A stretch of DNA of 64,000 nucleotides from Cyanophora paradoxa CCMP329 (Eukaryota > Plantae > Glaucophyta): the NCBI GenBank assembly GCA_004431415.1, contig QPMI01000005.1, positions 1,240,001-1,304,000 of the forward strand, in the 5' to 3' direction. The position numbers and the translations under genes were made by a program. The number at the start of each line of letters is the position of its first letter. The stretch's first letter is position 1. Under the pieces are notes generated by a model. That model was not told the DNA's origin. It made no database searches and saw only the letters and a program-made list of their open reading frames with translations. Shown piece by piece: positions 3,187 to 62,261 of this stretch.

Positions 3187-3953
3187 ATGGTTGAGGGGAC
3201 GGCGGGGCGCAGCCTGCAGCGGCAGATCCGCCAATGGAGGAAAAGGAAGCGACGGCGGCGACGGGGACAGAGTCCGGCGGGAGCGCGCCCGACCGGGCCC
3301 CGCCGCCGAGGGGAAGAAAGAGCCCGCCACGCCGCCGCCGTCGGATCGCGAGCCGACGCCGCCGCTCCGCACTCCCGGCAAGATCCTTCCGCTCCACCTA
3401 AGGTACAAGAAGCAGGTCGGCCGACGCGGCGCGCCCGCTCCCGCCCCGCCGCCCGCGCCCTCACCTCGTTGCCGCGCAGCTGGTGACCTACATCATCCGG
3501 AACGAGGCGGCGAGGCCCGTGGCGTACGTGGGCTCGACGAGCGACATGCAGCGCCGCCTGCGCGAGCACAACCACGGTCCGAGGCCGCGTGCGCCGCGCC
3601 GCGCCCTCCATCCGAACCCGCTCGCTGCGCAGGGAGCAAGTTCAGCTACACCAAGGGCAAAGGTGCGCCGGCCCGCCGGCCGGCCGGTCGCGCGCGCGCA
3701 CGCGCACCGCATCCACAACGCCTCGGCAGGTCCGTGGAGCGTGGTGTGCATCGCGCACGGCTTCAAGAGCGTGGCGGTGTGCCGGGCGTTTGAGCGCTCG
3801 GTCAAGGACGGCGGCGGAGGGCTCGAGCGCAAAAAGGGCGTCATGAGGCGTCTCGCCGCCGAGTTTAGCTCGCCGGAGACGCCCATCGCGGTCGAGGAGC
3901 TGGCGGAGGAGGACGCGGGGTCGAGCTCGCAGGGCTCGGGCGAGGGCGGGTAG
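3187..3953 (+). CDS. SLX1-like GIY-YIG endonuclease (3 introns)
   Basis: Spliced product LVTYIIRNEAARPVAYVGSTSDMQRRLREHNHG-SKFSYTKGK-GPWSVVCIAHGFKSVAVCRAFE matches the GIY-YIG/SLX1 pattern (YVG-T, RRLRxHN, PW, GF, FE). Confidence 0.8.
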
Positions 3954-4753: not shown

Positions 4754-5617
4754 TCAGTCGCTGCCCTCGCTCGGATCCGGCGGCGCAGCTGGATGTCCTG
4801 CGAGCGAGAGGCCGGCGTCGGGGCGAGAGGGCGGCATAGAGGGCGCGGGCGGGCGCCCTAGGCCTCGCGATCGGCCGGCGCCGGCGCCGCGCGCTTTCCC
4901 ACCTTTGGAGCGATCGTGATCCGGTTGCGGTGGATTGCCAGCAGGTTTGCTTCGTCAAAGGTTCTAATCAGGTGCATTTCCGTCGCCTCGCGAAGCGCCA
5001 GGATCGCGTCCGACTCCAGCGCAGCTCATCGGCGTCGAACCCGGCCTCTTCGCGGCGCTTCTTCTCGAAATGGGCGATCTCCTTGACCTGAAGGTACGCG
5101 CCCCGCCGCACTCTTACGTCGGCCCCGGCCCGCACGGGGCGCGCGACGGAGCGCACCAGGCGCTCAAAGGGCGCGTAGGCGATGAGCGGATCGAAGCTCT
5201 TCTGGTACTTTCGGATCTGCAGGGGTGCGCGTGCGGCCGCCCCGGTGCGGGGGCGCGGGGCGGGCTCTCCGGTTAGCAGAGGCCGCGCGCGGCGAGGGCG
5301 GAGAGGGGGAACGGGACCTCGCGGAGCGCGACCGTCCTGTTGCACCCCCGGCTCGCCCCGCTCAGCCGCCGATCGCGCGATGCCCGGCCGGCGGGACGGC
5401 GGGCGCACCGGGACGGTACCTGCGAGCGGCGGTCACGCGGCGCCGGCGGCGGCGGCGCGCGCGAGGGGTGGGAGGCGGGCGGGGGCGGAGCGGCCGCCTG
5501 TGCGGTTTCTTGACGCCGCCGGCCGCCGGCGCGCTCTTCCGCGCGGCTTGGACGAAAGGCGCTTCCGCGGCGCTTTGCTCCCGTCGAATGCCTGGCCGCT
5601 TGCTTGATGCGTGCCAT
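4754..5617 (-). CDS. Divergent histone H3 variant (CenH3-like fold, near-canonical tail); 5 introns, several single-base frameshifts
   Basis: Reconstructed protein [137 protein letters not shown].RRIR aligns residue by residue with H3. About 5-6 restored bases, mostly in G runs, are needed, so it is either miscalled or a pseudogene. Confidence 0.88.
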
Positions 5618-5732
5618 GGTGGGCCGCTCTCGGCGCGCCCCCCCACTGTTACGATTTCCACCCGCTCGTATTTGTATGTTTGAAATGAATCTTATTGCAT
5701 TCAAATAAACATGTACAAGGGACAGCTCGAAG

Positions 5733-7620
5733 GCGCTGCGGATCCGGACGAGTGCCCGGCGGCGTTCCTTCTCCGGGACGGCGTGCCGCCGCCCTCGTCG
5801 GGCCGCCCACCGCATACCGCGCTCTCGGAACGGCCTGCGGAGCGGAAGTTTACCTCGAGGCGGCCCGGCGGCGGGGGCGAGCGGGGGCCCACCTCGCCGG
5901 ACGCTAACGTTTACTTCCCAGGTCGTTTCCGGACGGCGTTACACGCACAGCCGGTCGCGAGGGCGCTGCGGACGAGTGCCCGTCGTCGGAGGCGTTCCTT
6001 CTCCGGGACGGCGTGCCGCCGCCCTTGTCGGGCCGCCCAGCGCATACCGCGCTCTCGGAACGGCCTGCGGAGCGGAAGTTTGCCTGACGATCGCGGCGGC
6101 GCGGCGGCGGGGCGAGCGGGGTGCCCACCTCGCCGGACGCTAACGTTTACTTCCCAGGTCGTTTCCGGACGGCGTTACACGCACAGCCGGTCGCGAGGGC
6201 GCTGCGGACGAGTGCCCCGTCGCCGGAGGCGTTCCTTCTCCGGGACGGCGTGCCGCCGCCCTTGTCGGGCCGCCAGCGCATACCACGCTCTCGGAACGGC
6301 CTGCGGAGCGGAAGTTTGCCTGACGATCGCGGCGGCGCGGCGGCGGGGCGAGCGGGGTGCCCACCTCGCCGGACGCTAACGTTTACTTCCCAGGTCGTTT
6401 CCGGACGGCGTTACACGCACAGCCGGTCGCGAGGGCGCTGCGGACGAGTGCCCCGTCGCCGGAGGCGTTCCTTCTCCGGGACGGCGTGCCGCCGCCTTGT
6501 CGGGCCGCCCAGCGCATACCACGCTCTCGGAACGGCCTGCGGAGCGGAAGTTTGCCTGACGATCGCGGCGGCGCGGCGGCGGGGCGAGCGGGTGCCCACC
6601 TCGCCGGACGCTAACGTTTACTTCCAGGTCGTTTCCGGACGCGTTACACGCACAGCCGGTCGCGAGGGCGCTGCGGACGAGTGCCCGTCGCCGGAGGCGT
6701 TCCTTCTCCGGGACGGCGTGCCGCCGCCCTTGTCGGGCCGCCCAGCGCATACCACGCTCTCGGAACGGCCTGCGGAGCGGAAGTTTGCCTGACGATCGCG
6801 GCGGCGCGGCGGCGGGGCGAGCGGGGTGCCCACCTCGCCGGACGCTAACGTTTACTTCCCAGGTCGTTTCCGGACGGCGTTACACGCACAGCCGGTCGCG
6901 AGGGCGCTGCGGACGAGTGCCCCGTCGCCGGAGGCGTTCCTTCTCCGGGACGGCGTGCCGCCGCCCTTGTCGGGCCGCCCAGCGCATACCACGCTCTCGG
7001 AACGGCCTGCGGAGCGGAAGTTTGCCTGACGATCGCGGCGGCGCGGCGGCGGGGCGAGCGGGTGCCCACCTCGCCGGACGCTAACGTTTACTTCCCAGGT
7101 CGTTTCCGGACGGCGTTACACGCACAGCCGTCGCGAGGGCGCTGCGGACGAGTGCCCGTCGCCGGAGGCGTTCCTTCTCCGGGACGGCGTGCCGCCGCCC
7201 TTGTCGGGCGCCCAGCGCATACCACGCTCTCGGAACGGCCTGCGGAGCGGAAGTTTGCCTGACGATCGCGGCGGCGCGGCGGCGGGGCGAGCGGGGTGCC
7301 CACCTCGCCGGACGCTAACGTTTACTTCCCAGGTCGTTTCCGGACGGCGTTACACGCACAGCCGGTCGCGAGGGCGCTGCGGACGAGTGCCCCGTCGCCG
7401 GAGGCGTTCCTTCTCCGGGACGGCGTGCCGCCGCCCTTGTCGGGCCGCCCAGCGCATACCACGCTCTCGGAACGGCCTGCGGAGCGGAAGTTTACCTCAA
7501 GGCGGCCCGGGGCGGGGCGAGCGGAGACCTACCTCGCCGGACGCTAACGTTTACTTCCAGGTCGTTTCCGGACGGCGCTATACGCACAGCCGGTCGCGAG
7601 GGCGCTGCGGACGAGTGCCC
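5733..7620. repeat. Tandem array A, ~236 bp unit, about 8 copies
   Basis: CTAACGTTTACTTCC recurs at about 5904, 6140, 6376, 6611, 6844, 7081, 7315 and 7544. Confidence 0.97.
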
Positions 7621-11485: not shown

Positions 11486-11713
11486 TCTCCGGTGGGGGTG
11501 TGCACGAGGGGGCCGCGACACTCCCTTTTATGTAGTACGTGGCCCGTCCCATCCCCCGGGGCCCTGCGGGAGGGAGGGGGCGCGCGGGGGGAGGAGGAGG
11601 GGGTGGGGCGGCGGCGGGGAGGGGTGGGCGGGGGCCGAAATATGGGTACGTGAAATCTAAGGGCACGTGGCATACGACTGCCCGACGGACCGGGAGTATG
11701 AAGCTGGCCGCGA

Positions 11714-12805
11714 GCTATTTTTAGGTACAGTAGTTTAGTGCTACAGTAGTTGAGTTCCGGGTCCGCTCCCCGGGCGGGCCGGCCGGCGCGACCACGCTTG
11801 CCGTCGCAACGCCGGGTACACGAAATGTAAACCACGGAGGGGGGGGGATGAAGCGTGAGATATTTTGGAGGGGGTGGAGGGGGGTGGAGGGGGTAGGGTG
11901 GGGGGGAAGGGTGGAGAGGGGCGTGGGGAAGGGTCAACGAGGGGAAATCGAAGGGTCGGCGAGGGGTAGCGCCCGACATATACCATGGTATATATGCACA
12001 GTAGTTTAGTACGACAGTAGTTGAGTTCCGGGTCCGCTCCCCGGCCGGCCGCCCGGTCGGACAAAGGGGGGTACCCTGTCTCGTACGAGGGGGGGGGAAG
12101 AAGTCACAGTAGTTTAGTGCCACAGTAGTTGAGTTCCGGGTCCGCTCCCCGGCCGGGGATCCGCGCCTGTTTTAATGTATTACACTATACAATATTATAT
12201 TATCTTTTTTCAATTTCAAATTCAAACCTAGAAAAGATAGAAGATAGTTACTACTGCATCACAGTATACATACATTATCTTTTTTTGGTTTTGAATTTGA
12301 ATTCAAAAATAATATATATAATGTATTATATTGCAATATAATGCGGGCGGAGCCCCAGCCGGGGAGCAGACCCGGAACTCAACTACTGTGGCACTAAACT
12401 ACTGTGACTTCTTCCCCCCCCCCCCCCCCCCCCTCGTACGAGACCGCGTACCCCTTCTCTCCGACCGGACGGCCGGCCGGGAGCGGACCCGGAACTCAAC
12501 TACTGTCGTACTAAACTACTGTGCATATATACCATGGTATATGTCGGGCGCTACCCCTCGCCAACCCTTCGATTTCCCCTCGTTGACCCTTCCCCACGCC
12601 CCTCCACCCTTCCCCCCACCCTACCCCCTCCATCCCCCTCCACTCTCTCCAAAATATCTCACGCTTCATCCCCCCCCCCCTCCGTGTTTTACATTTCGTG
12701 TACCCGGCGTTGCGACGGTAAACGTGGTCGCGCCGGCCGGCCCGCCCGGGGAGCGGACCCGGAACTCAACTACTGTAGCACTAAACTACTGTACCTAAAA
12801 ATAGC
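11714..12805. repeat. ~1.1 kb imperfect palindrome (arms 11714-12164 and 12347-12805, AT-rich centre); candidate replication origin or terminal junction
   Basis: The arms are reverse complements (gctatttttaggtacagtagttt... / ...aaactactgtacctaaaaatagc). Each arm carries three ~45 bp boxes ACAGTAGTTTAGTGCTACAGTAGTTGAGTTCCGGGTCCGCTCCC; a seventh box lies at ~12831-12888. Confidence 0.9.
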
Positions 12806-13003
12806 GCCGGGCCGCGCCGGACCGCCGACCCCGGGAGCGGACCCGAAACTCAACTACTGTGGCACTAAACTACTGTACCTAAAAATAGATAGCCCGGCGG
12901 GTCAGGGGCACGAATCTATAAAAGGAAGTTCCTCGCGTGGTACCCTCCCGCACCTGGGGCCCCTCCCACACCGCCCCCCTCCCCGTTTTACCTCTCGCAA
13001 AGC

Positions 13004-14682: not shown

Positions 14683-17600
14683 TTACTCTATCTGCACGCC
14701 GAGAATATCAAATCCTCGGCGCGGGATAACCAGAAACCGCTTCCGCCGCCCCGAGACGTCGCAGGTCGTAAACGCAGCGTTACCTCCATCGGGGAGCACG
14801 CCCGTTGCATCCGCATCCGAGGTCCAGTGATTTACCTGCCACTGACGAACGGCGGACCGTCCGTTGAGGCCTCCCCGACCGGTGTTGGCCAGGAAAAATC
14901 CCGGGCCCTCGTGGCCCATAAACGTCCACATCTTGAAAATCTCGACGTCCGCCAGCACCCGTCCCGCGGGTCCCGCGCCGAGTATCACGAGCCGTCGCCC
15001 GCCGGGGCCCGCCCTCGTCGCCGCCACGTAGCCGTAAAATTGCCGCACGTCCTCCAGGGTCGCCGCGAAGCGTTCCCGCACCGCCCTCGCAATCTCGGCC
15101 TCCAACGCGCCCCGCGCCTGGGCGGCAAACGTGCGCAGGGCCTCGTCGAGACCCGGGGCCTCGGCGGCGCGGCGTAGCACGTCGTGGCACTCGAACTCGG
15201 CGTCCTCCCCGAGGGCGGCGAGCGTCTCGGGCAGCATGTCCACGTGCGGGTTCGTGGGCGGGTCCGGGCGCGCCGCCGCCTCCTCTTCCTCTGGCGTCGC
15301 GTTTCGCCCCTCTTTCCGTCGCTCCATGGCCGCCTTCTTTGCCCGTTTGACCTTGCGTTCGAGCGCGTCCCGCGCCGCCACGATTGTGGCGGCGAGGTTG
15401 ACCCGACCGAGGCGGCGGGCAAGGGCCTCGGCCCGTTCGACTTCGTCCGTTTCCATCCCGGTCCGCCGCCGCCTCTCTTGGGCGCGCCGCACGATGCACG
15501 CCGCCGCGAAACGGGTTCCCGTCATCAGGGACCGGCCCTCGAGGCGACGGGGCTCATCGTTGCTCTTCGGACCGCCCTTGCCCCCGTTGGTCGCGAGCGG
15601 GACGCCCAGCAGCTCGTGCGCCCACCGCAAGATCTCGTACATGGTCCGGCGGAGCTCCTTGACCGCCATGGCGCACCCCAGGGGCCGCCCGTGCGCGTCC
15701 GCCGTCGCGCCCAGGGCGCGCAGGCGTGCGGCCTCGGTCAGGATCGCGGCGTCGTCGGCGCCCTCCGGAACCATCACGGTAAACGGGGCCGCAGAGCGCA
15801 GCTGGGCAAGCCGTCGGACCCACAGGACCGCCCGCTCGCGCGCCACGTCGGCGGCCTCGGCCAGGGCCGCCGCCACCCGGCCGGAGAGGTCGCGGCCGAG
15901 GGTAAACGGATCTTGTCCCTCGCAGAGCGTCCCCAGCGCCGCCGTCGCCTCGCCCCCGCGGGGCGCGCCCGGCACGAGGGCGGTCCGGAGGGCGTCCCGC
16001 CCCGCGAGCATTGCCCGCAGCTCCTCGAGGTCGACGCGCGCCACGTCCGCGTCCGACGGTGCGGGAACGCCGCCGTACAGGGCGGCGCGGGCGGCGCGGC
16101 GGTGCGCGGGGCGGAGCAGGGCCCTGCGGAGCGCCTTGACCGCCTCGGCCGGGTTGATGGGCCCGCCGTTGTCGGCCTTCCAGGGGTAGCGGCCCGCGTT
16201 GAGGAGATCGGTGCATCGCGACGACTCTAGAGCGGCGAGATACCCGCCGACGAGGGCGGGATCGACGGCGATGCAGCCCAGCAGGGCGGCGGCGAGGTGG
16301 TCCGGGAGGAGCGACCGCGAGAGGGCCTCGACGGCAACGCGCTTGGCGGCCGGACCCGTAACGCACAGGCCTGCGCCCTCGATCACGAGCTGCGCGAGCG
16401 GGGCCGCCCCGGGCGCCCCGTCGGCGTCCGTCCCGTCGACGTCCGCAAGGGCCCGCAGCGCCGGCAGCGTCGCGCAGCCGGTCAGGCGGAGAATCTCTAC
16501 GGCACCGCGCGACTCGTGAAGCAGGTCCCTGTAATCCCGTGAGTGCGACGAGGAGCCGTTCCAGCCGAGCTCGCCGCACATGCCGCCACGGAAGAGCCAA
16601 CGGATCGTGTCGTGCAGGGCGAGTTCAAACTTGCGCTTTCGCCGTCCCGCCGGGTCCTGGGCGTACCTCAGGGCCTCGTCCACGCCAACCTCCTCGCTGC
16701 GCGAGAGCGCCAGCGAGGTCGACGCAAACGCGAGGTCGGCGGCGTGCCGCTCGGCGTCGCAAAAGTGGACGGTCCGGTGGGCCCGCACATCGTTGTATAT
16801 CTCGCTCGCGGGGCACGGCCCGCGGCCGACCGCGCACACCTCCTCCTCGACCGGCAGCGGCCGCGCGCCGAGCAGCGGGTGGGCCATAAAGTGGAGCTTG
16901 TAGGCCTGGTGGAGCGCGTCGATCTCCGCCCCGACCCGCTTCTGGTCGAGAAAGTCGACGACGGCGACTCCGATCCCCATCCCGCCGCGCTTGCGAAGCT
17001 TGACGTCGTAGGCCAGGATGATGGAGCGCCGCGAGTGCGATTCGAGGGCCATCTGACGGGCCTGCGCCTCGAGCACCGCGGCGCCGAGCGAGCCGCGCAG
17101 CCGCGTCTTCCCCCCGAGCGGATTCCGGCAGCTGTAGGAACGGACTCCGGCGTCGATCTCCCGGACGTGTCGCTCGCTGTGGGCCCGCACCTGGGCGCGG
17201 CGGTCCGCCAGGATCTCGTCCGCGCGGAGCAGGTCGGACGTCGGCTCGGCGCGCAGCGAGCAGAAGAGGAGGGCGATCGTGGCGAGGAACCATCGAAGGC
17301 GCGGCGTGAGCTGGAACGACAGGTTCACGTCGCCGAGGGCGCCGCCGTGGACGGCGATGCAGCGGTCGAAGCGGACTCGAGGATCGTTGACGGACGTTCC
17401 CTGGGCGACCTGCGCGCGGTGGGTCGGTACGGGGAAAATAACGGTAAAACGGTAAACGGAGAATGGAGGGGGCGGGGGTGGGCGGACCGTGGAGTTGTAC
17501 AGGATGATATCGGCGTCGGCAAACGCCTCGGCGCTGCGGAAGACGAACCGCTCGGAATCCTCGCATCCTCCGACCACGATCTTGATGCGGATGTGCCTGA

Positions 17601-20205
17601 GTTCCGGGATCGCCTCGAGGACGCTTGCGATCCGAAAGAGCTCGTCCTTGGTCGTGCAGGAGATGACCTGCTTGTCGCCCACGAGGGCGTACGCGGCCAC
17701 GAGGAGGGGTGCGTCCGCAACCTCCGCCGCGGTCCAGGTGTGCCGCAGGTTGCCGCCGTCCCGCTTCTGGTAGAGCAGGACGGACGTGTCGTGCTGCTTG
17801 CGCCGGCGGGCCAGGCGCTCGAGCTCCGCGCGCTCGCCGTCCGCCTCGATCGCGTCGTCCTCGGCGGCGCCCATCGGCTCGTCCTGGATCGTGGAGGTCA
17901 CGCCCTCGGGTCCCTCGAGGCCCGCGTCGAGGAGCTTGAGGAAGAACGTGAGCGTCGGGACGGAAAGGTCCGCGTCGGCGATGAGCGTGACGTACGACTC
18001 GCCGAGCTTTATCGCGATGGCGGCGACGGCCTGCTGCCGCCGATCGTCCTTGGAGAGCGTCGCGCCGTTGGCCAGGATCGCGAGGAGCTTCCCGACCTCG
18101 TCCAGGAACGCGCTGTCGTGCCGGTTTACCCCGCTGTGATCGACAAAGTGACGGGCGCTCTCCAACGTCGTCGCGAGGTTCTCGGGAAACGCTCCCCGCT
18201 CCGGCCAGGGCCCGTGGCTCGCGCTCGAGTACGGGATCCATGCCGCCTCCTCCCGTCCCGAGAGCACGTCCTTGTAGCGGGTCTCGTTAACGAGCTCGTC
18301 CTGCTGCGCCCTCGAGTTGAGAAATACCAAGAGCTTCACATTGTTCCCGTCCCGTCCCGACCGCCCGACGATCTCGGGGTTCTCCTGGAGCAGCTTCCAG
18401 ACGAACGTGGACGCCTCCGTTTTGCCCCTCCCCATGCCCAATGGTAGGGCCACGATGATGCGCCGCGCCCCGGCCTCGCGCCGCGCCTGCACCTCGTTCC
18501 AGATGAGGTCGTAATCCACGTACAGGCTCCCGTCGTTTTCGTCCCGAATCACTCCGTCGACGACGTCGACCAGATCGTCGGGACTCGCGAGGGCATCCGC
18601 CAAGAATGCGTCGATCTCGTCGGGCGGCGGGAGCTGCCGCGCCACGGCGAGCGGCCCGCTGACGGTCTTCTTTTGCTCCTTGTCGAGGGCGGCGTACTCT
18701 TGCGCGATTTCCTTCGGGAGCAGGCTCTTTGACGCGCCGCTCGCGATGTCAATGGCGACCGGAATCGCGGCCTTGGCCGCGTCCTGCAGGAGGTCCGAAC
18801 CCCTGCCCGCCTTGGCGAATCTCCGCCGGGCCGTGGCACCCAGGCGCGCCGTCGTTACGCGCGGGGCGCCCGCGGCGGCGGGATCGCCGCAGAGGCGGCG
18901 GTCCATGTCCCCCTCGACGAGGCGCAGCGCCTCGAGGTGCACGTACGGCGGGTGAAACTCGAAGAGCGCGCTTTTGAGGTCGGAGGAGTCGATCCCGGCG
19001 CCCTGGCGGCAGTGGTAGCACGGAAGGAGGACGCTCCGCTCCCGTACCGAGTCGACGATGAGCTTGCCCGCGCGGCCCGCCGCGCCGCACGCGGGGCACG
19101 GCAGCCGGACCGTGTACTCGAGCGAGTTGGTCCAGACCTCCACGGTCAGCGTCGCCGCCGCGACAGAGGCCGGTCCGCTCGGGGCCGGACGGGCGGACCG
19201 AAACCACCTGCTTGCCGCGTCGGCGCGCCCTCGGGTCGCGATGGCCCCCAGCGCCGCCACGATCATTCCGCGCTCCTCCTGCGTTGCCTGGACGGCGAGT
19301 CCGCGCACCTCCCAGGGCTCTTCCGCGTCGCGGACGGGAAGGGCCTCTGCAAACTTCCGCATGGAGGGCATCATCCAGTTGTAGAACGATTGCCGCGCCG
19401 CGACGCAGGCGGGGTCCTCGGCCCCCGTGTGGATCGTGATGCCCTCGCGCCCCGCCTTGCTGGCGAGCATGCGGTGGTCCGGAATGCGCGTGGCGTGTTG
19501 CGCGAACCGGGCGTGAACGTCGCCCGAGACTGCGGCAGGCCCCGGCATGGAGCACGGGATTTTGCGTAAAAAATTGGGCAGGTCGCTCGTCGTCATTCCC
19601 GCGCGGTGCGCGTAGAGGCGGCCCAGAGGAATGAAGTAAAATCTCGTGGGGCCCTCGTAAAACTCGAAGATGAGAAACCCGCCGGCGCCGTCGTACTCGA
19701 GATGAAAGGGGATCTTCCACTCGCGCAGCTTTTCACACCGCTGGAAGACCGCGTTGGCCACCATCCGAACGTCGGCCCGCGCCTGGATGAGCGCCTCGAG
19801 CGGGGCGTTGCGCACGGCGCCGAGCGCCTTGCACAGGGCGATCTTGTCGTGCTGAAGGCCTTCGGGACGGCAGTGCGAGATGCACATCTGACGTACCAGC
19901 CAAAGTCGATTGTGTGCGGGGACGGCAAAGAGGTTGGCGAAACGACCGGATGGGGCCCTCGCGACCGTTGTCCAGGGCGTCCACTTTTGGTCGGCGAGTA
20001 CGAAAACGGGAGAGTTACCTTGTGACGGGTCCGAAATAGTGCCGGCGGGTCGAGAGGCGCTCTCGGGGATCTTGTCGAAATCCATGGTGTCGGGGTCAGT
20101 CGCACAGTCGGCCTCGGCGGCAGATGCAATGCGCTTGGAAGGTCCCTCGCCGTGGGGCCGGGACGGGCTCCTCGTGCGCTTGAGAGGCGCCGCGGGACTC
20201 GCCAT
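14683..20205 (-). CDS. Large origin-binding-protein-like (herpesvirus UL9-like) SF2 helicase with N-terminal Cys4 zinc ribbon; one in-frame intron
   Basis: Walker A IIVALPLGMGRGKT, Walker B AFLDEV, motif III IADADLS, motif V ILYNST/VAQGTS after removing intron 17410-17487, motif VI FQLTPRLR; CPAC...CYHC. The likely ATG is at 20205, downstream of TATAAAAG (20266-20273). Confidence 0.78.
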   Translation of the reverse strand: MASPAAPLKRTRSPSRPHGEGPSKRIASAAEADCATDPDTMDFDKIPESASRPAGTISDPSQGNSPVFVLADQKWTPWTTVARAPSGRFANLFAVPAHNRLWLVRQMCISHCRPEGLQHDKIALCKALGAVRNAPLEALIQARADVRMVANAVFQRCEKLREWKIPFHLEYDGAGGFLIFEFYEGPTRFYFIPLGRLYAHRAGMTTSDLPNFLRKIPCSMPGPAAVSGDVHARFAQHATRIPDHRMLASKAGREGITIHTGAEDPACVAARQSFYNWMMPSMRKFAEALPVRDAEEPWEVRGLAVQATQEERGMIVAALGAIATRGRADAASRWFRSARPAPSGPASVAAATLTVEVWTNSLEYTVRLPCPACGAAGRAGKLIVDSVRERSVLLPCYHCRQGAGIDSSDLKSALFEFHPPYVHLEALRLVEGDMDRRLCGDPAAAGAPRVTTARLGATARRRFAKAGRGSDLLQDAAKAAIPVAIDIASGASKSLLPKEIAQEYAALDKEQKKTVSGPLAVARQLPPPDEIDAFLADALASPDDLVDVVDGVIRDENDGSLYVDYDLIWNEVQARREAGARRIIVALPLGMGRGKTEASTFVWKLLQENPEIVGRSGRDGNNVKLLVFLNSRAQQDELVNETRYKDVLSGREEAAWIPYSSASHGPWPERGAFPENLATTLESARHFVDHSGVNRHDSAFLDEVGKLLAILANGATLSKDDRRQQAVAAIAIKLGESYVTLIADADLSVPTLTFFLKLLDAGLEGPEGVTSTIQDEPMGAAEDDAIEADGERAELERLARRRKQHDTSVLLYQKRDGGNLRHTWTAAEVADAPLLVAAYALVGDKQVISCTTKDELFRIASVLEAIPELRHIRIKIVVGGCEDSERFVFRSAEAFADADIILYNSTVRPPPPPPFSVYRFTVIFPVPTHRAQVAQGTSVNDPRVRFDRCIAVHGGALGDVNLSFQLTPRLRWFLATIALLFCSLRAEPTSDLLRADEILADRRAQVRAHSERHVREIDAGVRSYSCRNPLGGKTRLRGSLGAAVLEAQARQMALESHSRRSIILAYDVKLRKRGGMGIGVAVVDFLDQKRVGAEIDALHQAYKLHFMAHPLLGARPLPVEEEVCAVGRGPCPASEIYNDVRAHRTVHFCDAERHAADLAFASTSLALSRSEEVGVDEALRYAQDPAGRRKRKFELALHDTIRWLFRGGMCGELGWNGSSSHSRDYRDLLHESRGAVEILRLTGCATLPALRALADVDGTDADGAPGAAPLAQLVIEGAGLCVTGPAAKRVAVEALSRSLLPDHLAAALLGCIAVDPALVGGYLAALESSRCTDLLNAGRYPWKADNGGPINPAEAVKALRRALLRPAHRRAARAALYGGVPAPSDADVARVDLEELRAMLAGRDALRTALVPGAPRGGEATAALGTLCEGQDPFTLGRDLSGRVAAALAEAADVARERAVLWVRRLAQLRSAAPFTVMVPEGADDAAILTEAARLRALGATADAHGRPLGCAMAVKELRRTMYEILRWAHELLGVPLATNGGKGGPKSNDEPRRLEGRSLMTGTRFAAACIVRRAQERRRRTGMETDEVERAEALARRLGRVNLAATIVAARDALERKVKRAKKAAMERRKEGRNATPEEEEAAARPDPPTNPHVDMLPETLAALGEDAEFECHDVLRRAAEAPGLDEALRTFAAQARGALEAEIARAVRERFAATLEDVRQFYGYVAATRAGPGGRRLVILGAGPAGRVLADVEIFKMWTFMGHEGPGFFLANTGRGGLNGRSAVRQWQVNHWTSDADATGVLPDGGNAAFTTCDVSGRRKRFLVIPRRGFDILGVQIE

Positions 20206-21631: not shown

Positions 21632-24001
21632 CTACGTGGCGGCTTTGAGTCGCTTGGACGGGGGCTCGATGGGAGCTGCGCCGCCACCGACCATCTCGTA
21701 CGCGTGGTCGGTGCAAAAGTCCGTGCAGTTTTCGCGGAGGCAGGCCCGCTTCACGGATCCCTTTTCCAGGTTGAGCTTGAAGTAAATGGGCCCCGCGCCC
21801 TTGTGCGGGTCGATCTTGTGCGCTTTGGGATGGTTGGGGTTGGTGTGGAACATGGTGCACACGAACCAGCTCGAGTTCCACGCGCAAAGAAGGCTCCCGT
21901 CGTCGATCCTAGCTTTGAATTTCGGCCCGCGCCTGTCGTCGGAATCGCGCATCCCGTAGGCCTCTAGCACATCCTTCTCCTCGTCCGTCCCCATGACGTC
22001 GAAGAAGCGTCGTCGAAACAGTTTCGAGCACAGGTAGCGCCGGAGCAGATCCCTTCCGCGCTCCTCCTGCTCTCGAGTGCAGGGTCCGTACTCGACCTTT
22101 TCCGACTCCTGTTGGCCGGGCACTTTTACTCCACCTCCGACCTTGTCCGATCGTGCATACTTTTGAATCCGCTCGAGCGCCTCTGGCGGGAGCGGTGTCG
22201 GCGTCCAGCCCGGCAGGGGCCGCATGCAGGCGGCCTGGAGGAGCGGAAGGGAGAGGGTACGGAGCCGCCCCCCGTAGCGCGCCTCGTCGGGCTGCCCGTC
22301 GGGTCCCACCGCCGCGAGGAGGCCCATGACGCTGCTCGGGACGGTCTCCCACCACACGGACGGCTTGGCGCCGGCGATGTTGCTCCGTTTTTCGCGCTTT
22401 GCCGCGCCGAGCATGCGCAGGCTGTGTTTCGCGCTCTCGAGTGGCTGGAGGTCCAGCTTTCCGCCGGCCCACAGTCCGTCCTCGCTCCGGAGCGCCCTCG
22501 CAATGGCCGCGTTGTTCGCGCAGCTGGTCTTCAGGTCCGGAAACGCGATGTGCGTCGACTTTCGCGCCGGGTTGCCCAGCGCGAGGATGCTGCAAAATTC
22601 CGCCGAGATCCCCAGCTTGGTCCGCAGCACCGACTGGATAGCCCGCAACTGGTCGTGCGTCTCGACGAGCGCGCCGTCGATGTCGAGCTTGAGCCGAACC
22701 GCGGGGTCCTTGTCTTCCCGGATCTCGTGCGTGTACCAGGGCGTCCTGGTGTAAATGCAGAGCTGATGATTGCGGAGGATGTAGTCGTTGCACCGACGGC
22801 GAAAAGCGATCTGCTCCGGCTCGGGGAGGTCCTTGGGCGTCACCGAGAGGTAAAATTCCTGGGGCCGCTGGAAGAAGAATTCGCGGTGGGACGGCGGCTC
22901 CTTGCCCTCCTTGTCCAACTTTCGACCGTACCACTGGTCGTACTCGCAGTCCGCATCCCTGACGAACACGCATCCCTCGGTGACCGTGAGGCTGCCCCGC
23001 CGGTACACCTTTTCCTCGGCGTCGTTGGGCGCCTTGCACTCGTCCGCCGGCGCGGACGCGACGGCCGTGGGCTCGGATCCGTCGGCAGCCGGCGCCGTCT
23101 TCGGACCCGCCGGACCGAAATCGGCGTGGTCCATGGGCGGTCCCGTGAGCGTCTTGCATTGACCGCGTTGAAGCGTGGCTTCGAGGAGCCGGTCGCTCAG
23201 AACCCCGAACCAGAACAGCTTGATCTCGTTCCGGAGCGACGGATCCGGGTCCCGTTCGGGATTGCGCGAGAGCGCGGCCCGCGTCGGCCAGAAACCGCTG
23301 TCGGGGTGGACCTGCACGTCGGGCTTCACGCCCTTGCGGTTCACAAAGGTGCTGGTGTCGATGAGGTCGACGACCTTCCTCGGCTCTACACCGGGCGCTT
23401 CGACGACGGCGTCGATGACCTTGGACCCGAAGAGGTCGCGAAGCCAGGAGACGGCGTCCTGCATCCACTTTCCATCGCGCGGGACGATGGCAAAGCTTCG
23501 CGAGACGCTGCGCTCGTGGTCGAAGAGGTTGAACGCGACGCGAAATCCCTTTTTGCCGGTAAAGTAGCGCAGGACGGTCTGCGCTCCGAGCTGCCGCGCC
23601 CGACGGCACACGAGCTCCGACGCCGCGTCGGCCTGGGCGAGCTCGGGGATGGCGGCGCACGCGTCCCCGACCGTCGCGCCGTCGGGCGCGTCCTTGAGCC
23701 ACGCAATCAGCTTGGGATACGAGCCGTGCTCTTTGTCGAACGCGTCAAAGTCGATGACGGTCATGAGATGGAGGCGTTCGCCGGTGCCGTCGGAGCGCTC
23801 AAACTGGGGGAAAATGAGGCACGACATGGTGAGGGTCGAATTCAGCTGGGTTTCCGACGGAATGGGTCTCCAGCAATCCTTTGCCGCGTACCAGATGTCC
23901 GTCCCGCACTTTCCCGTCGCAACGGATCGCTGGTAAGCCTGGTGGGCGGTCCGCGGCTGCGATTTGGTGCGCATGCACCAAACGGGGGTGGGCAACGCCA
24001 T
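21632..24001 (-). CDS. Archaeo-eukaryotic primase (PrimPol/NCLDV-herpes clade) with C-terminal zinc finger and an extra N-terminal AEP-like domain
   Basis: C-terminal domain: LKLDID (motif I), KSTHIAF (motif II), KLDLQP...SLRMLGAAK (motif III) and a C-H-C-C finger (CTMF...H...IYFKLNLEKGSVKRACLRENC). N-terminal domain: VIDFD, YFTGKKGFRV and LIDTSTF. Confidence 0.8.
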   Translation of the reverse strand: MALPTPVWCMRTKSQPRTAHQAYQRSVATGKCGTDIWYAAKDCWRPIPSETQLNSTLTMSCLIFPQFERSDGTGERLHLMTVIDFDAFDKEHGSYPKLIAWLKDAPDGATVGDACAAIPELAQADAASELVCRRARQLGAQTVLRYFTGKKGFRVAFNLFDHERSVSRSFAIVPRDGKWMQDAVSWLRDLFGSKVIDAVVEAPGVEPRKVVDLIDTSTFVNRKGVKPDVQVHPDSGFWPTRAALSRNPERDPDPSLRNEIKLFWFGVLSDRLLEATLQRGQCKTLTGPPMDHADFGPAGPKTAPAADGSEPTAVASAPADECKAPNDAEEKVYRRGSLTVTEGCVFVRDADCEYDQWYGRKLDKEGKEPPSHREFFFQRPQEFYLSVTPKDLPEPEQIAFRRRCNDYILRNHQLCIYTRTPWYTHEIREDKDPAVRLKLDIDGALVETHDQLRAIQSVLRTKLGISAEFCSILALGNPARKSTHIAFPDLKTSCANNAAIARALRSEDGLWAGGKLDLQPLESAKHSLRMLGAAKREKRSNIAGAKPSVWWETVPSSVMGLLAAVGPDGQPDEARYGGRLRTLSLPLLQAACMRPLPGWTPTPLPPEALERIQKYARSDKVGGGVKVPGQQESEKVEYGPCTREQEERGRDLLRRYLCSKLFRRRFFDVMGTDEEKDVLEAYGMRDSDDRRGPKFKARIDDGSLLCAWNSSWFVCTMFHTNPNHPKAHKIDPHKGAGPIYFKLNLEKGSVKRACLRENCTDFCTDHAYEMVGGGAAPIEPPSKRLKAAT

Positions 24002-24554: not shown

Positions 24555-24654
24555 GTGAATGGAAGCCGCGTTGAAGAGTGCCAGAAGGATCGATTTGAGT
24601 GTGTGGTAAATAAAGTCTCGTCGGTCTTTGACGTCCTCGTGAAATGGCACGATC

Positions 24655-26502
24655 GGGGGCCGCGGGGCGCGGACCCAGGGGCAGCGGGGCGGCGGGCGCA
24701 GCGTAGCCCGGCGTGCCGTTCGAGGACGGACTCGGGGCAGAGCGCTGCGCCGTCGTCGCCGCCGCGACGCCCGTCTGCCTTCAGCGCACGGCCCGCGCCC
24801 CCCGTATTCGACCATCGTGAAACGACATGGGAAGTAAGAGAGTGCCGGCGGGCCGCGGACGGTGCGAGCGGGTGCCGCGGGGCGGGGACCAGGGGCGGCG
24901 GGGCGGCGGGCGCAGCGTAGCCCGGCGTGCCGTTCGAGGACGGATTTAGGGCAGAGCGCTGCACCGTCGACGCCGCCGCGACGCCCGTCTGCCGTCACCT
25001 CACGGTCCGCGCCCCGTATTCGACCATCGTGAAACGACATGGGAAGTAAGAGAGTGCCGGCGGGCCGCGGACGGTGCGAGCGGGTGCCGCGGGGCGCGGA
25101 CCAGGGGCGGCGGGGCGGCGGGCGCAGCGTAGCCCGGCGTGCCGTTCGAGGACGGATTTGGGGCTGAGCGCTGCGCCGTCGTCGCCGCCGCGACGCCCGT
25201 CTGCCTTCAGCGCACGGTCCGCGCCCCGTATTCGACCATCGTGAAACGGCATGGGAAGTAAGAGAGTGCCGGCGGGCCGCGGACGGTGCGAGCGGGTGCC
25301 GCGGGGCGCGGACCAGGGGCGGCGGGGCGGCCGGTGCAGCGTAGCCCGGCGTGCCGTTCGAGGACGGCCTTGGGGCAGAGCGCTGCACCGTCGACGCCGC
25401 CGCGACGCCCGTCTGCCGTCAGCGCACGGCCCGCGCCCCGTATTCGACCATCGTGAAACGACATGGGAAGTAAGAGAGTGCCGGCGGGCCGCGGACGGTG
25501 CGAGCGGGTGCCGCGGGGCGCGGACCAGGGGCGGCGGGGCGGCCGGCGCAGCGTAGCCTGGCGTGCCGTTCGAGGACGGATTTGGGGCTGAGCGCTGCGC
25601 CGTCGACGCCGCCGCGACGCCCGTCTGCCGTCACCTCACGGCCCGCGCCCCGTATTCGACCATCGTGAAACGGCATGGAAAGTAAGAGAGTGCCGGCGGG
25701 CCGCGGACGGTGCGAGCGGGTGCCGCGGGGCGCGGACCAGGGGCGGCGGGGCGGCCGGTGCAGCGTAGCCCGGCGTGCCGTTCGAGGACGGCCTTGGGGC
25801 AGAGCGCTGCACCGTCGACGCCGCCGCGACGCCCGTCTGCCTTCAGCTCACGGCCCGCGCCCCGTATTCGACCATCGTGAAACGACATGGGAAGTAAGAG
25901 AGTGCCGGCGGGCCGCGGACGGTGCGAGCGGGTGCCGCGGGGCGCGGACCAGGGGCGGCGGGGCGGCCGGCGCAGCGTAGCCTGGCGTGCCGTTCGAGGA
26001 CGGATTTGGGGCTGAGCGCTGCGCCGTCGACGCCGCCGCGACGCCCGTCTGCCGTCACCTCACGGCCCGCGCCCCGTATTCGACCATCGTTAAACGGCAT
26101 GGAAAGTAAGAGAGTGCCGGCGGGCCGCGGACGGTGCGAGCGGGTGCCGCGGGGCGCGGACCAGGGGCGGCGGGGCGGCGGGCGCAGCGTAGCCCGGCGT
26201 GCCGTTCGAGGACGGATTTGGGGCAGAGCGCTGCACCGTCGACGCCGCCGCGACGCCCGTCTGCCTTCAGCTCACGGCCCGCGCGCCCCGTATTCGACCA
26301 TCGTGAAACGGCATGGGAAGTAAGAGAGTGCTGGCGGGCCGCGGACGGTGCGAGCGGGTGCCGCGGGGCGCGGACCAGGGGCGGCGGGGCGGCCGGCGCA
26401 GCGTAGCCTGGCGTGCCGTTCGAGGACGGCCTTGGGGCAGAGCGCTGCACCGTCGACGCCGCCGCGACGCCCGTCTGCCGTCAGCGCCCGGCCCGCGCCC
26501 CC
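24655..26502. repeat. Tandem array B, 212 bp unit, about 8.7 copies
   Basis: CCCGTATTCGACCATCGT recurs at about 24801, 25013, 25225, 25437, 25649, 25862, 26073 and 26287. Confidence 0.97.
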
Positions 26503-27615: not shown

Positions 27616-27766
27616 GCGTAGCAACATCCAGCACGGGAGCGCGTGCGTTCCCACTCTGACACAGGAAAAACGCATAAATTCGTGCGAAACCGTCTCCCGG
27701 ACAGGGTCCAAACCCGGTTTACCCCACCCTGACCCACTTTCAACCCCCTTTTCCCGCCCTTTTACC

Positions 27767-28561
27767 ATGTGCTGCATCGACGTCGCCGAGACCGTTGTCA
27801 CCCCCGAGGGGCCCGTGTGCCCCCACTGCGGCATCGTCGTCGAGACGCAGGGCCCCCTATGCTCCGCCGCCTCGGACGCGACCGCCGCCGCCGCCGCCGC
27901 CGCCGCCGGCGAGACCGCGCCCGACCTCGGCGCCGCCCTCGGCATGCTCCGGGCCCTCGACCGAGAATCACGCCCCAGCGGCGGGCTCGGCCGCACGACC
28001 GAGGCCACGCTGGAGCGCGTGGTCGACCAGCTCGAGCTGCCGGAGAGCGTCCGGCACCTCGCGCGGCGGGTCATCTTCCCGAAGAGGCTGCGCACGGGGC
28101 GGCGCTCCGACGTTCTCGCGGCGGCGGCCGTGTACCACGCCTCCAAGGCGCTCCGGCACCCCCGGATCCTCGCCGACGTGATGCAAACGTGCCCCGGGCT
28201 CGCGGGACGGCGCGCCCTGGTGCTGCGGGCCATTCGGGACATCCACTTTTTCCAGAAGGAAAACGGCGGCGACGGCGCCGAGTACGTCCCGCGCCCCGGC
28301 GACTACGTCGACATCATCTCGGACCGGCTGCAGCTGCCGCCGGGCGAGCGCGTGCGCGCGCGGCGGCGCGCGGCGCTGCTGCAGCAGCAGTCCTCGCGGT
28401 CCCCGCTGGTGCTCGCCGGCGTCGCGATCTGCGCGGCGACGCCCTCTTCGGTGAGGGACGTCGCGTCGGCCGCCGGGGTCACGCTGGTCGGACTGCGCAA
28501 GGGGCTCGACGCCCTCGGCGTCTGCGCGCTGGCCGAGTCGAGGGTAGGGGTAGAGTCCTAG
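27767..28561 (+). CDS. TFIIB-like transcription initiation factor (compact, intronless, virus-like)
   Basis: N-terminal zinc ribbon (VCPHCGIVVE) and two cyclin-fold repeats: QLELPESV...GRRSDVLAAAAVYHASKALRHPRILADV and PGDYVDIISDRLQLP...RSPLVLAGVAI...VRDVASAAGVT. Confidence 0.88.
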   Translation: MCCIDVAETVVTPEGPVCPHCGIVVETQGPLCSAASDATAAAAAAAAGETAPDLGAALGMLRALDRESRPSGGLGRTTEATLERVVDQLELPESVRHLARRVIFPKRLRTGRRSDVLAAAAVYHASKALRHPRILADVMQTCPGLAGRRALVLRAIRDIHFFQKENGGDGAEYVPRPGDYVDIISDRLQLPPGERVRARRRAALLQQQSSRSPLVLAGVAICAATPSSVRDVASAAGVTLVGLRKGLDALGVCALAESRVGVES

Positions 28562-29890: not shown

Positions 29891-29912
29891 CTGCGCGCCC
29901 AGACGCGCGCCG

Positions 29913-33789: not shown

Positions 33790-35420
33790 GTGGGACGGAG
33801 CGCCGCCTCCCTCGTCGGGCCGCCCACCGCATACCACGCTCTCAGAACGGCCTGCAAAACGGAAGTTTGCGAGCGGAGGGCCTACCTTGCCGGCTGCTAG
33901 TGGACGTTTACTCCCTAGCCCGTTTCCGGACGGCAGTATACGCACAGGTCGCAAGGGCGCTGCGGACGAGTGCCCGGCCCGCCCAGCCCCCTAGCGCCGT
34001 TCCTCCTCCGGGACAGCGCGCCGCCGCCCTCGCCGGGCTGCCCACCGTATACCACGCTCTCAGAACGGCCTGCGCCGCGACATTTTACTTCCCGATCGTG
34101 GCGGCGCGGCGGCGGGGCGAGCGGGGCGCCTACCTCACCGGCTGCTAGTGGACGTTTACTTCCCAGGTCGTTTCCGGACGGCGGTATACGCACAGGTCGC
34201 AAGGGCGCTGCGGACGAGTGCCCGGCCCGCCCAGCCCCCTAGCGCCGTTCCTCCTCCGGGACAGCGCGCCGCCGCCCTCGCCGGGCTGCCCACCGTATAC
34301 CACGCTCTCAGAACGGCCCGCGCCACGATATTTTACTTTCCGATCGTGGCGGCGCGGCGGCGGGGGCGAGCGGGGCGACCTCGCCGGCTGCCAGTGGACG
34401 TTTACTTCCCAGCCCGTTTCCGGACGTTGGTATACGCACAGGTCGCAAGGGCGCTGCGGACGAGTGCCCGGCCCGCCCCGCCCCCTAGCGCCGTTCCGCC
34501 TCCGGGACAGCGCGCCGCCGCCCTCGCCGGGCTGCCCACCGTATACCACGCTCTCAGAACGGCCCGCGCCACGACATTTTACTTTCCGATCGCGGCGGCG
34601 CGGCGGCGGGGGGCGAGCGGGGCGACCTCGCCGGCTGCCAGTGGACGTTTACTTCCCAGGTCGTTTCCGGACGGCGGTATACGCACAGGTCGCAAGGGCG
34701 CTGCGGACGAGTGCCCGGTCCGCCCCGCCCCTAGCGCCGTTCCTCCTGCGGGACAGCGCGCCGCCGCCCTCGCCGGGCTGCCCACCGTATACCACGCTCT
34801 CAGAACGGCCTGCGCCGCGACATTTTACTTCCCGATCGTGGCGGCGCGGCGGCGGGGCGAGCGGGGCGCCTACCTCACCGGCTGCTAGTGGACGTTTACT
34901 TCCCAGGTCGTTTCCGGACGGCGGTATACGCACAGGTCGCAAGGGCGCTGCGGACGAGTGCCCGGTCCGCCCCGCCCCTAGCGCCGTTCCTCCTCCGGGA
35001 CAGCGCGCCGCCGCCCTCGCCGGGCTGCCCGCCGTATACCACGCTCTCAGAACGGCCTGCGCCGCGACATTTTACTTTCCGATCGCGGCGGCGCGGCGGC
35101 GGGGGCGAGCGGGGCGCCTACCTCACCGGCTGCTAGTGGACGTTTACTTCCCAGCCCGTTTCCGGACGTTGGTATACGCACAGGTCGCAAGGGCGCTGCG
35201 GACGAGTGCCCGGTCCGCCCAGCCCCCTAGCGCCGTTCCTCCTCCGGGACAGCGCGCCGCCGCCCTCGCCGGGCTGCCCACCGTATACAACGCTCTCAGA
35301 ACGGCCTGCGCCGCGACATTTTACTTTCCGATCGCGGCGGCGCGGCGGCGGGGGCGAGCGGGGCGACCTCGCCGGCTGCTAGTGGACGTTTACTTCCCAG
35401 GTCGTTTCCGGACGGCGTTT
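33790..35420. repeat. Tandem array C, ~247 bp unit, about 6.6 copies, homologous to array A
   Basis: GTGGACGTTTACT recurs at about 33900, 34148, 34395, 34641, 34888, 35135 and 35382. Shares cgtttacttcccaggtcgtttccggacggcg, gggcgctgcggacgagtgccc and ataccacgctctc.gaacggcctgc with array A. Confidence 0.97.
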
Positions 35421-35565
35421 TACGCACCGCTATCTGATCCGCACCCGCGCGGATGAAACTAAATCCATAAATTGAACCGCTTGAATCGTCGAGCGCTCCT
35501 ACAACTGCTCCGTCCCTCCCGCAAACCCTCCCCCGCCATCCCCTCGCTCCACCACGGGGCTCGGC

Positions 35566-60700: not shown

Positions 60701-62261
60701 CCGCCCGCCGCCGGTCCCAAGCTGACGCCCCGTCCCTCGCGCAGCGTCGTCCCGATCGCCGAGCCGCTCCAGGAGCTCTTTACCCAGTACACGGAAGAGC
60801 ACCGGGCCGCCCTCCTCGCCGACGGCGCCCGGGGCTCGGACCCGGGCTTTATCTTCTGCAAGTACGACGGCGGGCCGATGAGCGTCACGGGATTTACCGC
60901 GTACTTTAAAAAGGTGAGCGTACCTCGGTCCCCCCCGTCGGCGCGCCCCGACGACGACGACGCCCGCCGCCGCCAGGCGACGCTCCGCTGGACGAAGAAG
61001 GAGATCCCGCCGCGCCTCCTGCGCAGCGTCGTGAGCACGTGGGTGCGGGACAAGAGCGCCGAGGGGGCCATCACCGCCGACGTCGCCGACGGGATCATCC
61101 GCGGCACCGCCAAGCTGCTGGCCCATACGCCGCGCGTCGCGACGCTCCACTACGACGTGCACGCCAAGCAGCGCGAGGCGGCGACGGCGGCGGCCTGGTT
61201 CGAGCACGCCGCGCTCGAGTACGAGGCCCGCCGCGCCGAGCGGGACCGCCCGGCGACGCCGCCGGCGCTCGAGGGGCCGCCGGCGCCCAAGGGACCGTCG
61301 CCGCGGAAGCAGAAGAAGGCGGCGGCGAGGGCGCCGCCGGAGCGCGCGAGCGCGATGGCGGTCGAGGAGCTGCCGCCGGCGCCGCCGCTCCCGTCGCCCG
61401 ACTCGCCGCTGCCGGGCGGGCGGGCCGCCGCCGTCGGCGCCGCCGTCCCGAGCACCGCCGCCAAGGGGGCCAAGGGACGGGACGACGGCGGGAGCGAGGA
61501 AGAGGACGGGGGGAGCTCGGAGGAGGAGGACGAGGAGGACGAGGAGGATCCCGGCGACCGCGTGCGCCGCCCTCCTCTTCCCCCCACAGGATCCCGCCCG
61601 CCGCGCCGCCGCCGCCCCCCGACGCCCCCCGCAGATGGAGCGCGAGCTCGCCGAGGCCGAGAACCGCTGGTGCGCGGCGTGCAGGACGATCTTCGGCACC
61701 CGAAAGGGCCTGGCGCGGCACCGCGGTCACTGCAAGGGCGCGGGGACCCCGGACGGCAAGATCGTACCGTCCGGGGTGCCCGTCGCCGTGCCCGCCGAGA
61801 TGCCGCCGCCGCCGCCGGTCGCGTGGCACCTGCGCTGGATCAGCCCGGCGCCCCTCCGGCCGCGCGGCGTGTACGCGGCGCTCGCCTCGCGCGGCGGGGA
61901 CCCGCTCCCCACGATCCTGGTGGCGCGCGCGCTCCTCCCCGCCGTGCCGCTCCCGTCGGGCCAGTACGAGAGCCGCCTGACGCTCCTGCGGCACTACGGC
62001 TCGCTCTACGTCGCCGTGACCGAGGGGAGCGCGGCGGACTACACGTACCCGTCGGGCCTCGTCGAGGTGGAGTACCGCGGGAGCAACGGCGCCATCGACC
62101 TGGTGACGCGCTCCAGCGAGATCGCCCAGCGCCTCGGCCTGGGGCCCGCCGCGGCGCCCTCGCCGCCCCCGGCGGCCGAGCAGGACGGCGGCGGCGCCGT
62201 CGTGCGCAGGACGGGGCGGCGGCGCGGTCGGCCCCCCAAGTCGCTGCGGCGCGGCCCGTGA
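57772..62261 (+). CDS. Multi-exon fusion protein: BRO-N-like + Ulp1/SENP (C48) cysteine protease + acidic linker + tyrosine recombinase + Pro-rich + C2H2 zinc finger + AT-hook
   Basis: Ulp1 motifs DWLQDAQI, HW-ILLAVD (His ~59045), WFDSLG and LQTDSFQCGIW. Recombinase motifs LSLCPARVAVVRKL (Arg I), HKTAK (Lys), PPRLLRS (Arg II) and AKLLAHTPRVATLHYD (His, Tyr). CAACRTIFGTRKGLARHRGHC zinc finger; RRRGRPPK AT-hook. Introns at 60281-60333 (GT-AG), 60678-60744 (GC-AG) and 60914-60976, plus several at 58.7-59.4 kb. Residual indels remain near 61.6 kb. Confidence 0.8.

Follow-up and report, generated by a model that had tools for sequence, protein, structure and literature searches.

A divergent, intron-bearing histone H3 family associated with a recombinase-encoding element of Cyanophora paradoxa

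A 59,453-bp unit in the glaucophyte alga Cyanophora paradoxa that carries a tyrosine recombinase and a UL9-like helicase also encodes an intact histone H3 of unusual design, in which a strongly altered histone fold follows a nearly canonical tail. We analyzed this gene and its surroundings within one stretch of 64,000 nucleotides, referred to here as the window (contig QPMI01000005.1, positions 1,240,001 to 1,304,000; Table 1). The explanation that we favor, with a probability of roughly 0.45, is that the element encodes a replacement H3 that would pair with host H4 and form loose, K9-less nucleosomes, which would help to keep the element active when switched on. An earlier note, made from the sequence of the window, had proposed an independently derived centromeric or element-specific histone. 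The element-specific part of that proposal is upheld by an intact gene, its location inside a recombinase/helicase element and its membership in a conserved family of three, while a centromeric function appears less likely than that of an element-specific replacement histone.

The H3 gene is read on the minus strand from an ATG at 5617 to a TGA at 4754 and consists of six exons (5617-5498, 5419-5409, 5336-5318, 5216-5157, 5087-4903, and 4797-4754) separated by five introns of 69-105 bp, one of them GC-AG and four GT-AG. As assembled, the exons contain five frameshifts. Two independent short-read DNA contigs differ from the assembly by gaps alone, contig X2/22 having 0 substitutions and 12 gaps across 4740-5640 (913 letters on 901) and contig X4/14 having 0 substitutions and 17 gaps across 4561-5779. 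For this reason the frameshifts are long-read sequencing errors and the gene is intact, and a pseudogene reading was dropped. Ten of the 12 gaps in X2/22 are listed as single-base insertions, three exonic and seven intronic; the other two map within 5487-5640 (contigs X16/12 and X18/20), and we assigned two of the five exonic insertions to this interval by inference, so that residue 13 is read as G or A. With the insertions the exons comprise 444 nt, corresponding to 147 aa plus a stop, and the frame, for which the earlier note had asked for a check against other reads, is thus confirmed. Comparison of the window's two 4.5-kb repeat copies shows 43 gaps, every one a base that the first copy lacks, and 42 of these lie in C or G runs. 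At about 2000-14000 of the window, gene models are disrupted by densely spaced single-base deletions in such runs and require correction with short reads.

Protein P0002 (EukProt, Cyanophora paradoxa), which represents either this locus or another copy of it, matches the 66-aa query at every residue; its model independently reads through the break at 5009 and joins exon 3 to exon 4. Intron 3 is the only intron of this copy with such outside support, the other four having been placed by splice signals, frame arithmetic, and alignment to the paralog P0018. The score of the H3 exons, 0.2-0.42 per codon, resembles that of other genes of the element. We also considered intron 4, which is in frame, as coding sequence and rejected this on its codon score of 0.006 and its absence from both paralogs, although the P0002 model retains it. 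By homology of both fold and tail the protein belongs to the histone H3 family: two pieces of the gene match Pfam Histone (E 7.7e-6 and 2.9e-8), 90 of 135 residues are identical to canonical H3, and the best 60 PDB matches are H3 or an H3/CENP-A chimera, a ranking that cannot tell H3 from CenH3 with canonical H3 entries occupying these top 60 places.

Table 1. Features located in the window, with the evidence for each.
Feature	Position	Strand	Evidence or remark
Divergent histone H3 gene, 147 aa	4754..5617	minus	Pfam Histone, short-read contigs, P0002
Helix-1/loop-1 region with 10-aa charged insertion, common to three paralogs	5028..5066	minus	alignment, paralog DNA contig
GT-AG intron of antisense transcript overlapping H3 exon 5	4972..5024	plus	joint in X15, X16, X17
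GIY-YIG nuclease, downstream of H3 gene	3402..3953	plus	Pfam E 1.7e-8
Array A, 236-bp unit x8, 73% GC, upstream of H3 gene	5728..7620		
Imperfect palindrome, 1.1 kb, 23% GC center, 3+4 nested boxes	11706..12813		
Large ORF, UL9-like (origin-binding) helicase domain	14686..20202	minus	Atlas 0.98; cluster with PF02399 on 53% of members
789-aa ORF, primase-like by motif reading only	21635..24001	minus	by eye
Array B, 212-bp unit x8.7	24650..26501		no BLAST match to array A unit
TFIIB-like gene	27764..28558	plus	Pfam E 5.7e-8
ORF with F-box-like start (by eye); homolog mis-joined to P0014	32386..33558	plus	23/44 identical, E 4e-11
Array C, 246-bp unit x6.3	33792..35430		same-strand homolog of array A (77-82%)
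Tyrosine recombinase, intron-split	59342..61564	plus	Atlas 0.96; second copy at window start
Direct repeat of window 1-4504, giving 59,453-bp unit	59454..64000	plus	99.0% identity

The substitutions Q68E, F84W, and T107A, which had been proposed before the frame was settled, are all present in the reconstructed protein; for position 107 as the third diagnostic position of CenH3 we follow the earlier note. Two further claims of that note hold as well, namely that loop 1 is lengthened by 10 aa (the segment from helix 1 to LRW has 20 aa vs 10 in H3) and that the tail is mostly canonical (32/39 identical to H3). Further changes are T3I, K9H, K64Y, A114R, K115N, and A127R. Helix N is as in H3 at 17 of 18 positions and H113, D123, L126, I130, and R131 are kept, and helix 2 is identical to H3 at 13 of 30.

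Homolog searches revealed a family in C. paradoxa comprised of this H3 and two paralogs of the same design, P0014 and P0018. The insertion is exactly 10 aa long in all three, and a paralog DNA contig matches 47 of the 55 letters at 5013-5067 without gaps. Common to the three are E/D68 (E/D/E), W84 (W/W/W), D/E87, R93, M98, H99, A107 (A/A/A), R114, and R127, and their C-termini are acidic. K64 is lost throughout (Y/Y/F), as is K115 (N/G/N), a residue with a role in the nucleosome, and R63 is lost in two of the three. In the two full-length members, this copy and P0018, T3 is lost, K9 is replaced (by H here and by R in P0018, which has a K at position 8), and K4, K14, K23, K27, and K36 are kept; the P0018 tail is likewise identical to H3 at 32/39 positions. 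In these two proteins four of the seven tail changes coincide in position (P 0.012 under a uniform model), which shared ancestry can explain, and the loss of K9 may represent one ancestral event followed by drift rather than repeated selection. Within the 76 aligned fold positions the paralogs share 52-58 residues among themselves and 39-42 with H3 (41, or 54%, for this copy), and in a tree of 13 rows, none of them a CenH3, they form a 100/100 clade on a branch of 0.88. Since the paralogs are far closer to each other than to H3 and form one clade, the alignments indicate that the family is a conserved new design and not a product of decay.

At least one paralog appears to reside in a related element. 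The first 44 residues of the P0014 model are 52% identical (23/44, E 4e-11) to an element ORF at 32797-32928, and because P0014 thus adjoins a homolog of an element gene we placed it in a sister element; among the paralogs this evidence is limited to P0014. No family members outside C. paradoxa were found in IMG/VR, metagenome, and protein homolog searches; a metagenome scan with the H3 piece and a homolog search with the intron-containing H3 frame as query gave no match, and IMG/VR scans with P0018 and the family alignment returned only ordinary giant-virus H3s and H4-H3 doublets (L001-L006). Doublets that are no kin of this family lie at L005:500-1140, on a metagenome contig, and at L006:4700-5300, on a 152-kb viral contig.

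Structure predictions were made for P0018, standing in for this copy. In the AlphaFold model helix 1 extends to residue 85 with a local pLDDT of about 80, and the 10-aa insertion is therefore predicted largely to lengthen this helix; the monomer model is weak overall, with a pTM of 0.39 and a TM of about 0.4 to H3. Two P0018 folds modeled with two H4 chains scored 0.69, compared with 0.01 for the best of three controls, on a scale where 51 of 78 solved pairs and 2 of 108 mismatched ones attain the threshold; as a textbook pair the complex may pass by likeness to solved structures. At least 80% of contacts agree between the P0018-H4 runs and partner pLDDT is 80-82. The H4 sequence was taken from an unrelated record, and the score covers the whole complex, with the H3-H3' contact not scored separately.

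Evidence on transcription comes from five sequencing runs (X15-X19) that we designated RNA-like, a status guessed from splice joints missing in DNA runs, no run being recorded as RNA. In three of the five (X15, X16, and X17, from two studies) contigs on this copy skip 4972-5024 at GT-AG sites of the plus strand, antisense to H3, while retaining the sense H3 introns; the joint is missing from DNA runs X2 and X4. No RNA contig of these three RNA-like runs covers the skipped segment, which is part of sense exon 5. The five RNA-like runs, whose contigs drop rare forms, showed no sense mRNA of this H3 copy. A coding function of the antisense RNA was rejected, as all eight of its frames of at least 40 aa score below 0. 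The sister paralog is spliced in four of the five runs, with 187 letters between two anchors vs 399 in its DNA contig, and the loop differences of the spliced form fit P0014. In this sister H3 (paralog contig X2/23, behind window 5547), a Met at tail position 14 represents either K14M or the start of a shorter tail without K4 and K9. Part of array A (5756-5836) matches contigs in all three RNA-like runs compared, including X19, which has no cover of the gene, and the arrays may thus be transcribed.

The direct repeat that bounds the unit shows it to be a circle or a tandem (head-to-tail) copy. The earlier suggestion of an episome is compatible with this repeat, but a head-to-tail arrangement accounts for it just as well. 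The recombinase scores 0.96 in the Atlas to Tyr-recombinase clusters, most commonly of Preplasmiviricota, and matches a PHROG integrase (E 0.007) and Pfam SAM-like (E 0.0066). RING, AAA, and F-box genes also have Pfam support. For the 789-aa primase-like ORF there was no Pfam, PHROG, or PDB match, a homolog search returned the ORF itself alone, and its predicted fold has a pLDDT of 37. Neither Pfam (359 ORFs of at least 95 aa) nor PHROGs (16 proteins) revealed a capsid or packaging family, though introns, frameshifts, and the absence of profiles specific to PLVs reduce the power of this test. No IMG/VR relatives of the primase-like ORF, helicase, H3 piece, or recombinase were found, and an Rfam search gave no match. 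Because the same 0.59 share of the words of this stretch is present in 14 of 24 listed sequencing runs, the element appears to be a stable resident.

Several minor observations concern the remainder of the unit. Ubiquitin-pathway genes lie at 13103-14307, 20835-21545, 31429-31776, 32386-33558, and 46352-47002, labeled as RING (Pfam), one F-box (Pfam E 0.001), and two more F-box-like starts with a BTB-like piece (weak or by eye). Possible chromatin enzymes are TET/JBP-like (53816-54448, plus strand, Pfam E 0.2) and GHKL/MORC-like ATPase (9530-11485, minus strand, E 0.12) genes, and a SET-like ORF (48618-49259, minus strand) was noted from a motif seen by eye only, with no PDB match for the piece; we regard the SET, TET/JBP, and MORC-like labels as weak or by eye. 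Upstream of the recombinase, at 57763-59357 (plus strand), ORFs were seen, by eye only, to contain a part resembling Bro-N and a motif like that of cysteine proteases. Contig depths hint at multiple copies without giving a copy number: in X2 they are 27 for the element and 21 for the paralog vs 4-9 for other short matches, and in X4 they are 160 and 134 vs 50-102. The whole unit (1-59453) is seemingly an undescribed large recombinase element, its proteins being without relatives in the searches run.

Three tandem arrays of 1.6-1.9 kb and 71-76% GC are present in the unit. The earlier note had placed the start codon about 115 bp from one of them, and we find the ATG 111 bp from the first partial unit of array A and 139 bp from the start of the array as called by TRF. 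Arrays B and C have no adjoining H3 gene. That array C is an inverted copy of A was ruled out by its direct orientation. Because array C is a homolog of array A without an H3 gene beside it, the adjacency of H3 and array A carries little weight.

The favored reading is that of a replacement histone, which may have begun with the capture of an intron-bearing H3-family gene of the host. Its altered helix 2 would confer a new chaperone specificity; the protein is predicted to pair with host H4, with the lengthened helix 1 on the nucleosome face, and would be deposited on element DNA. The resulting nucleosomes would be loosely wrapped and unable to carry K9 or K64 silencing marks, and would thereby make the element resistant to silencing, while antisense transcription may repress this copy in culture. 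We favor this reading because the silencing sites K9 and K64 are gone from the family, as are lateral DNA contacts. According to the available text of the sources, acetylation of K64, which neutralizes the residue, makes nucleosomes less stable and counteracts K64me3 (PMC3965291), transposons of a green alga and of plants carry H3K9me (PMC11982613), and single viral H3s and a bracovirus H4 provide a precedent for entry into host nucleosomes (PMC9145170). The element also carries gene-control genes, with Pfam support for TFIIB, RING, and F-box and weak matches for TET/JBP and GHKL. Some observations sit less easily with a replacement histone. H3K27me3 silences transposons in unicellular algae (PMC11982613, in the same portion of text) and K27 is kept here, so loss of K9 alone would give at best a partial escape; in the open-licence literature we found no report of H3K9 methylation in C. 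paradoxa. No sense RNA was seen for this copy. Judged from the residues, W84, D/E87, A107, and the clustering of changes in loop 1 and helix 2 are just as compatible with descent from CenH3, and A114R and A127R at the H3-H3' contact, which may block normal tetramers, are unexplained by the replacement reading.

CenH3 is a functional class (PMC3380720), and the claim of a centromeric histone is supported only in part. Four features of CenH3 are given in the text of PMC7052976 available to us: a loop 1 insertion, loss of the helix-1 glutamine, a divergent fold, and a divergent N-tail. The first three are found here, whereas the tail, at 32/39 identity in this copy and in P0018, is far from divergent or unalignable. 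The accessible portion of PMC4359364, which prints the residues as 69, 85, and 118, also requires a divergent N-tail and phylogenetic grouping; T118 is kept here. In addition, the supplement of PMC5579357, as far as available, names five CenpA candidates of C. paradoxa whose tails are divergent; they are homology calls on old gene models and not validated, and none of them comes from this H3 family.

We therefore weighed three other explanations against the replacement histone. In one, which we think unlikely, the element has a private CenH3, with a fold derived from or mimicking that of CenH3, which loads on the arrays or on AT-rich patches and brings in the host kinetochore for segregation of the circles. 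Beyond the three features named above, this would account for the concentration of divergence in loop 1 and helix 2, the CenH3 targeting region, with helix 2 retaining only 13 of 30 H3 residues while the tail retains 32 of 39, and it would suit an element that appears stably kept in 14 of the 24 listed runs. In the same portion of the PMC5579357 supplement, read by eye, W84, D/E87, and A107 are common states in algal and plant CenH3, and several fungal loops are about as long as this one, but an acidic residue 68 occurs in none of about 95 CenpA entries. The H3-like tail, the predicted helicity of the insertion, and the five other candidates in the host are further points against a private CenH3, as are arrays that are short, GC-rich and, in the case of B and C, without an H3 neighbor. 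Moreover, a recombinase element can be inherited in integrated form without a centromere, and this element persists though this copy shows antisense RNA only. The acidic C-termini of the family are also at odds with CENP-C binding, which prefers hydrophobic tails. A CenH3-derived fold under an H3 tail is a possible origin for the protein, judged by its residues; that capsid-less recombinase elements use such a chimeric histone to mark their own circles as centromeres, or to hijack CenH3 loading, strikes us as improbable.

Alternatively, the gene may be passive cargo or a domesticated host variant, that is, an H3 variant lineage with a role in the host whose copy in the element is now antisense-silenced. 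The five spliceosomal introns, the glitches of the host's CenpA-candidate models at the positions of introns 2 and 4 (by eye), which suggest shared intron sites, and the expression of a paralog while this copy shows antisense RNA would all fit such a history. We find it doubtful, as the P0014-like paralog, which is expressed, has an element-gene homolog joined to it, and all copies have stayed open despite a divergence of 24-32% in the fold, with element-like codon use in this one, which implies long selection on each copy. Quite unlikely, in our view, is a dominant-negative decoy that binds H4 and chaperones, blocks the H3-H3' bundle through R114 and R127, and drains nucleosome (or CenH3) assembly in trans, favoring replication of the element. 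Both arginines occur in all three paralogs, at positions lining the four-helix bundle; residues that contact DNA are lost, pairing with H4 is predicted, and antisense control would suit a harmful product. However, the tail and helix N are H3-like, as in a protein read in chromatin, H113, D123, L126, I130, and R131 are kept, and the sister copy is expressed in ordinary cultures.

Single viral H3s (DSLPV1, sylvanvirus, xenomavirus, and NCLDV MAGs) and the bracovirus H4, as described in the available text of PMC9145170, resemble the present case in that one histone is encoded without partners and presumably enters host nucleosomes, and the viral H3s share its H3-like tail; their folds, however, are 73-87% identical to host-type H3 (54% here) with modification sites mostly kept, and the H3 described here differs from them in its 10-aa insertion, five introns, loss of K9, and carrier without a detected capsid. 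With CenH3/CENP-A it shares the loss of Q68, W84, A107, a longer loop-1 region, and a divergent helix 2, but its canonical tail and helix N, acidic 68, R114, R127, acidic C-terminus, and location on an element set it apart. Mirusviruses (PMC10132985, PMC12768974) are likewise DNA parasites of protists that are associated with the nucleus and carry an H3, and some are intron-rich, episomal, or integrated; in the parts of these papers available, their genomes average 265 kb and include an HK97 capsid module, whereas the present element has 59 kb, no such match in Pfam or PHROGs, and an integrase of the Polinton-like tyrosine-recombinase type. Polinton-like viruses, in the text available from PMC12220804 and PMC10120064, are recognized in part by an integrase (tyrosine recombinase or rve), and those with a tyrosine recombinase are expected to form a circular intermediate; the element's tyrosine recombinase, nearest to Preplasmiviricota clusters, is of this kind, and an SF2-type helicase and possible terminal inverted repeats are further likenesses. 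At 59,453 bp it exceeds their range of 14-40 kb, and unlike them it is intron-rich and carries H3 and TFIIB; of their jelly-roll capsid protein and packaging ATPase none was detected in the Pfam and PHROG searches, limited as described above. Within the same text the word "histone" occurs once, for an RNA stem-loop in PMC12220804. An analogy of logic exists with VANC of Arabidopsis VANDAL transposons (available text of PMC5735166), an element-encoded chromatin factor beside element-specific tandem repeats, although VANC is not a histone and its anti-silencing activity was shown experimentally, while that of the H3 is inferred.

We found no description of the element or of the H3 family in the open-licence literature, and the main text of the C. 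paradoxa genome paper (PMC6704402) does not contain "histone", "circular", "virus", or "plasmid". While single H3s borne by parasites are known as near-copies of host H3, a rebuilt, intron-bearing H3 family in apparently capsid-less elements would, on sequence evidence, be new. In this element family the H3 tail has stayed readable, while the targeting region of loop 1 and helix 2 has been rebuilt along with the lysines that contact DNA and the H3-H3' contact, and such an H3 would give selfish DNA a new means of setting its own chromatin state. If instead the private-centromere reading were true, it would be the first case of a selfish element that encodes a centromeric histone for itself. The family offers a natural test of whether sequence rules for calling CenH3 predict centromere function, and a caution that these rules can flag mobile-element histones in protist genomes. 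Direct testing is feasible, since C. paradoxa is a reference alga kept in culture and many sequenced samples contain the element.

Other non-coding sites of the element may be of interest for its maintenance. The palindrome at 11706-12813, with seven nested copies of a roughly 45-bp box, may represent joined terminal inverted repeats, a recombinase site, or an origin for the UL9-like helicase. An 11-bp motif present in every unit of arrays A and C is a possible binding site, and it occurs singly at 27474 (near the TFIIB gene), at 29871 (in a 178-bp repeat, 29525-29899), and at 23047 (inside the primase-like ORF). Finally, a 920-bp patch at 54640-55560, with 37% GC in an element of 70% GC and with short palindromic repeats, is a possible origin or segregation site.
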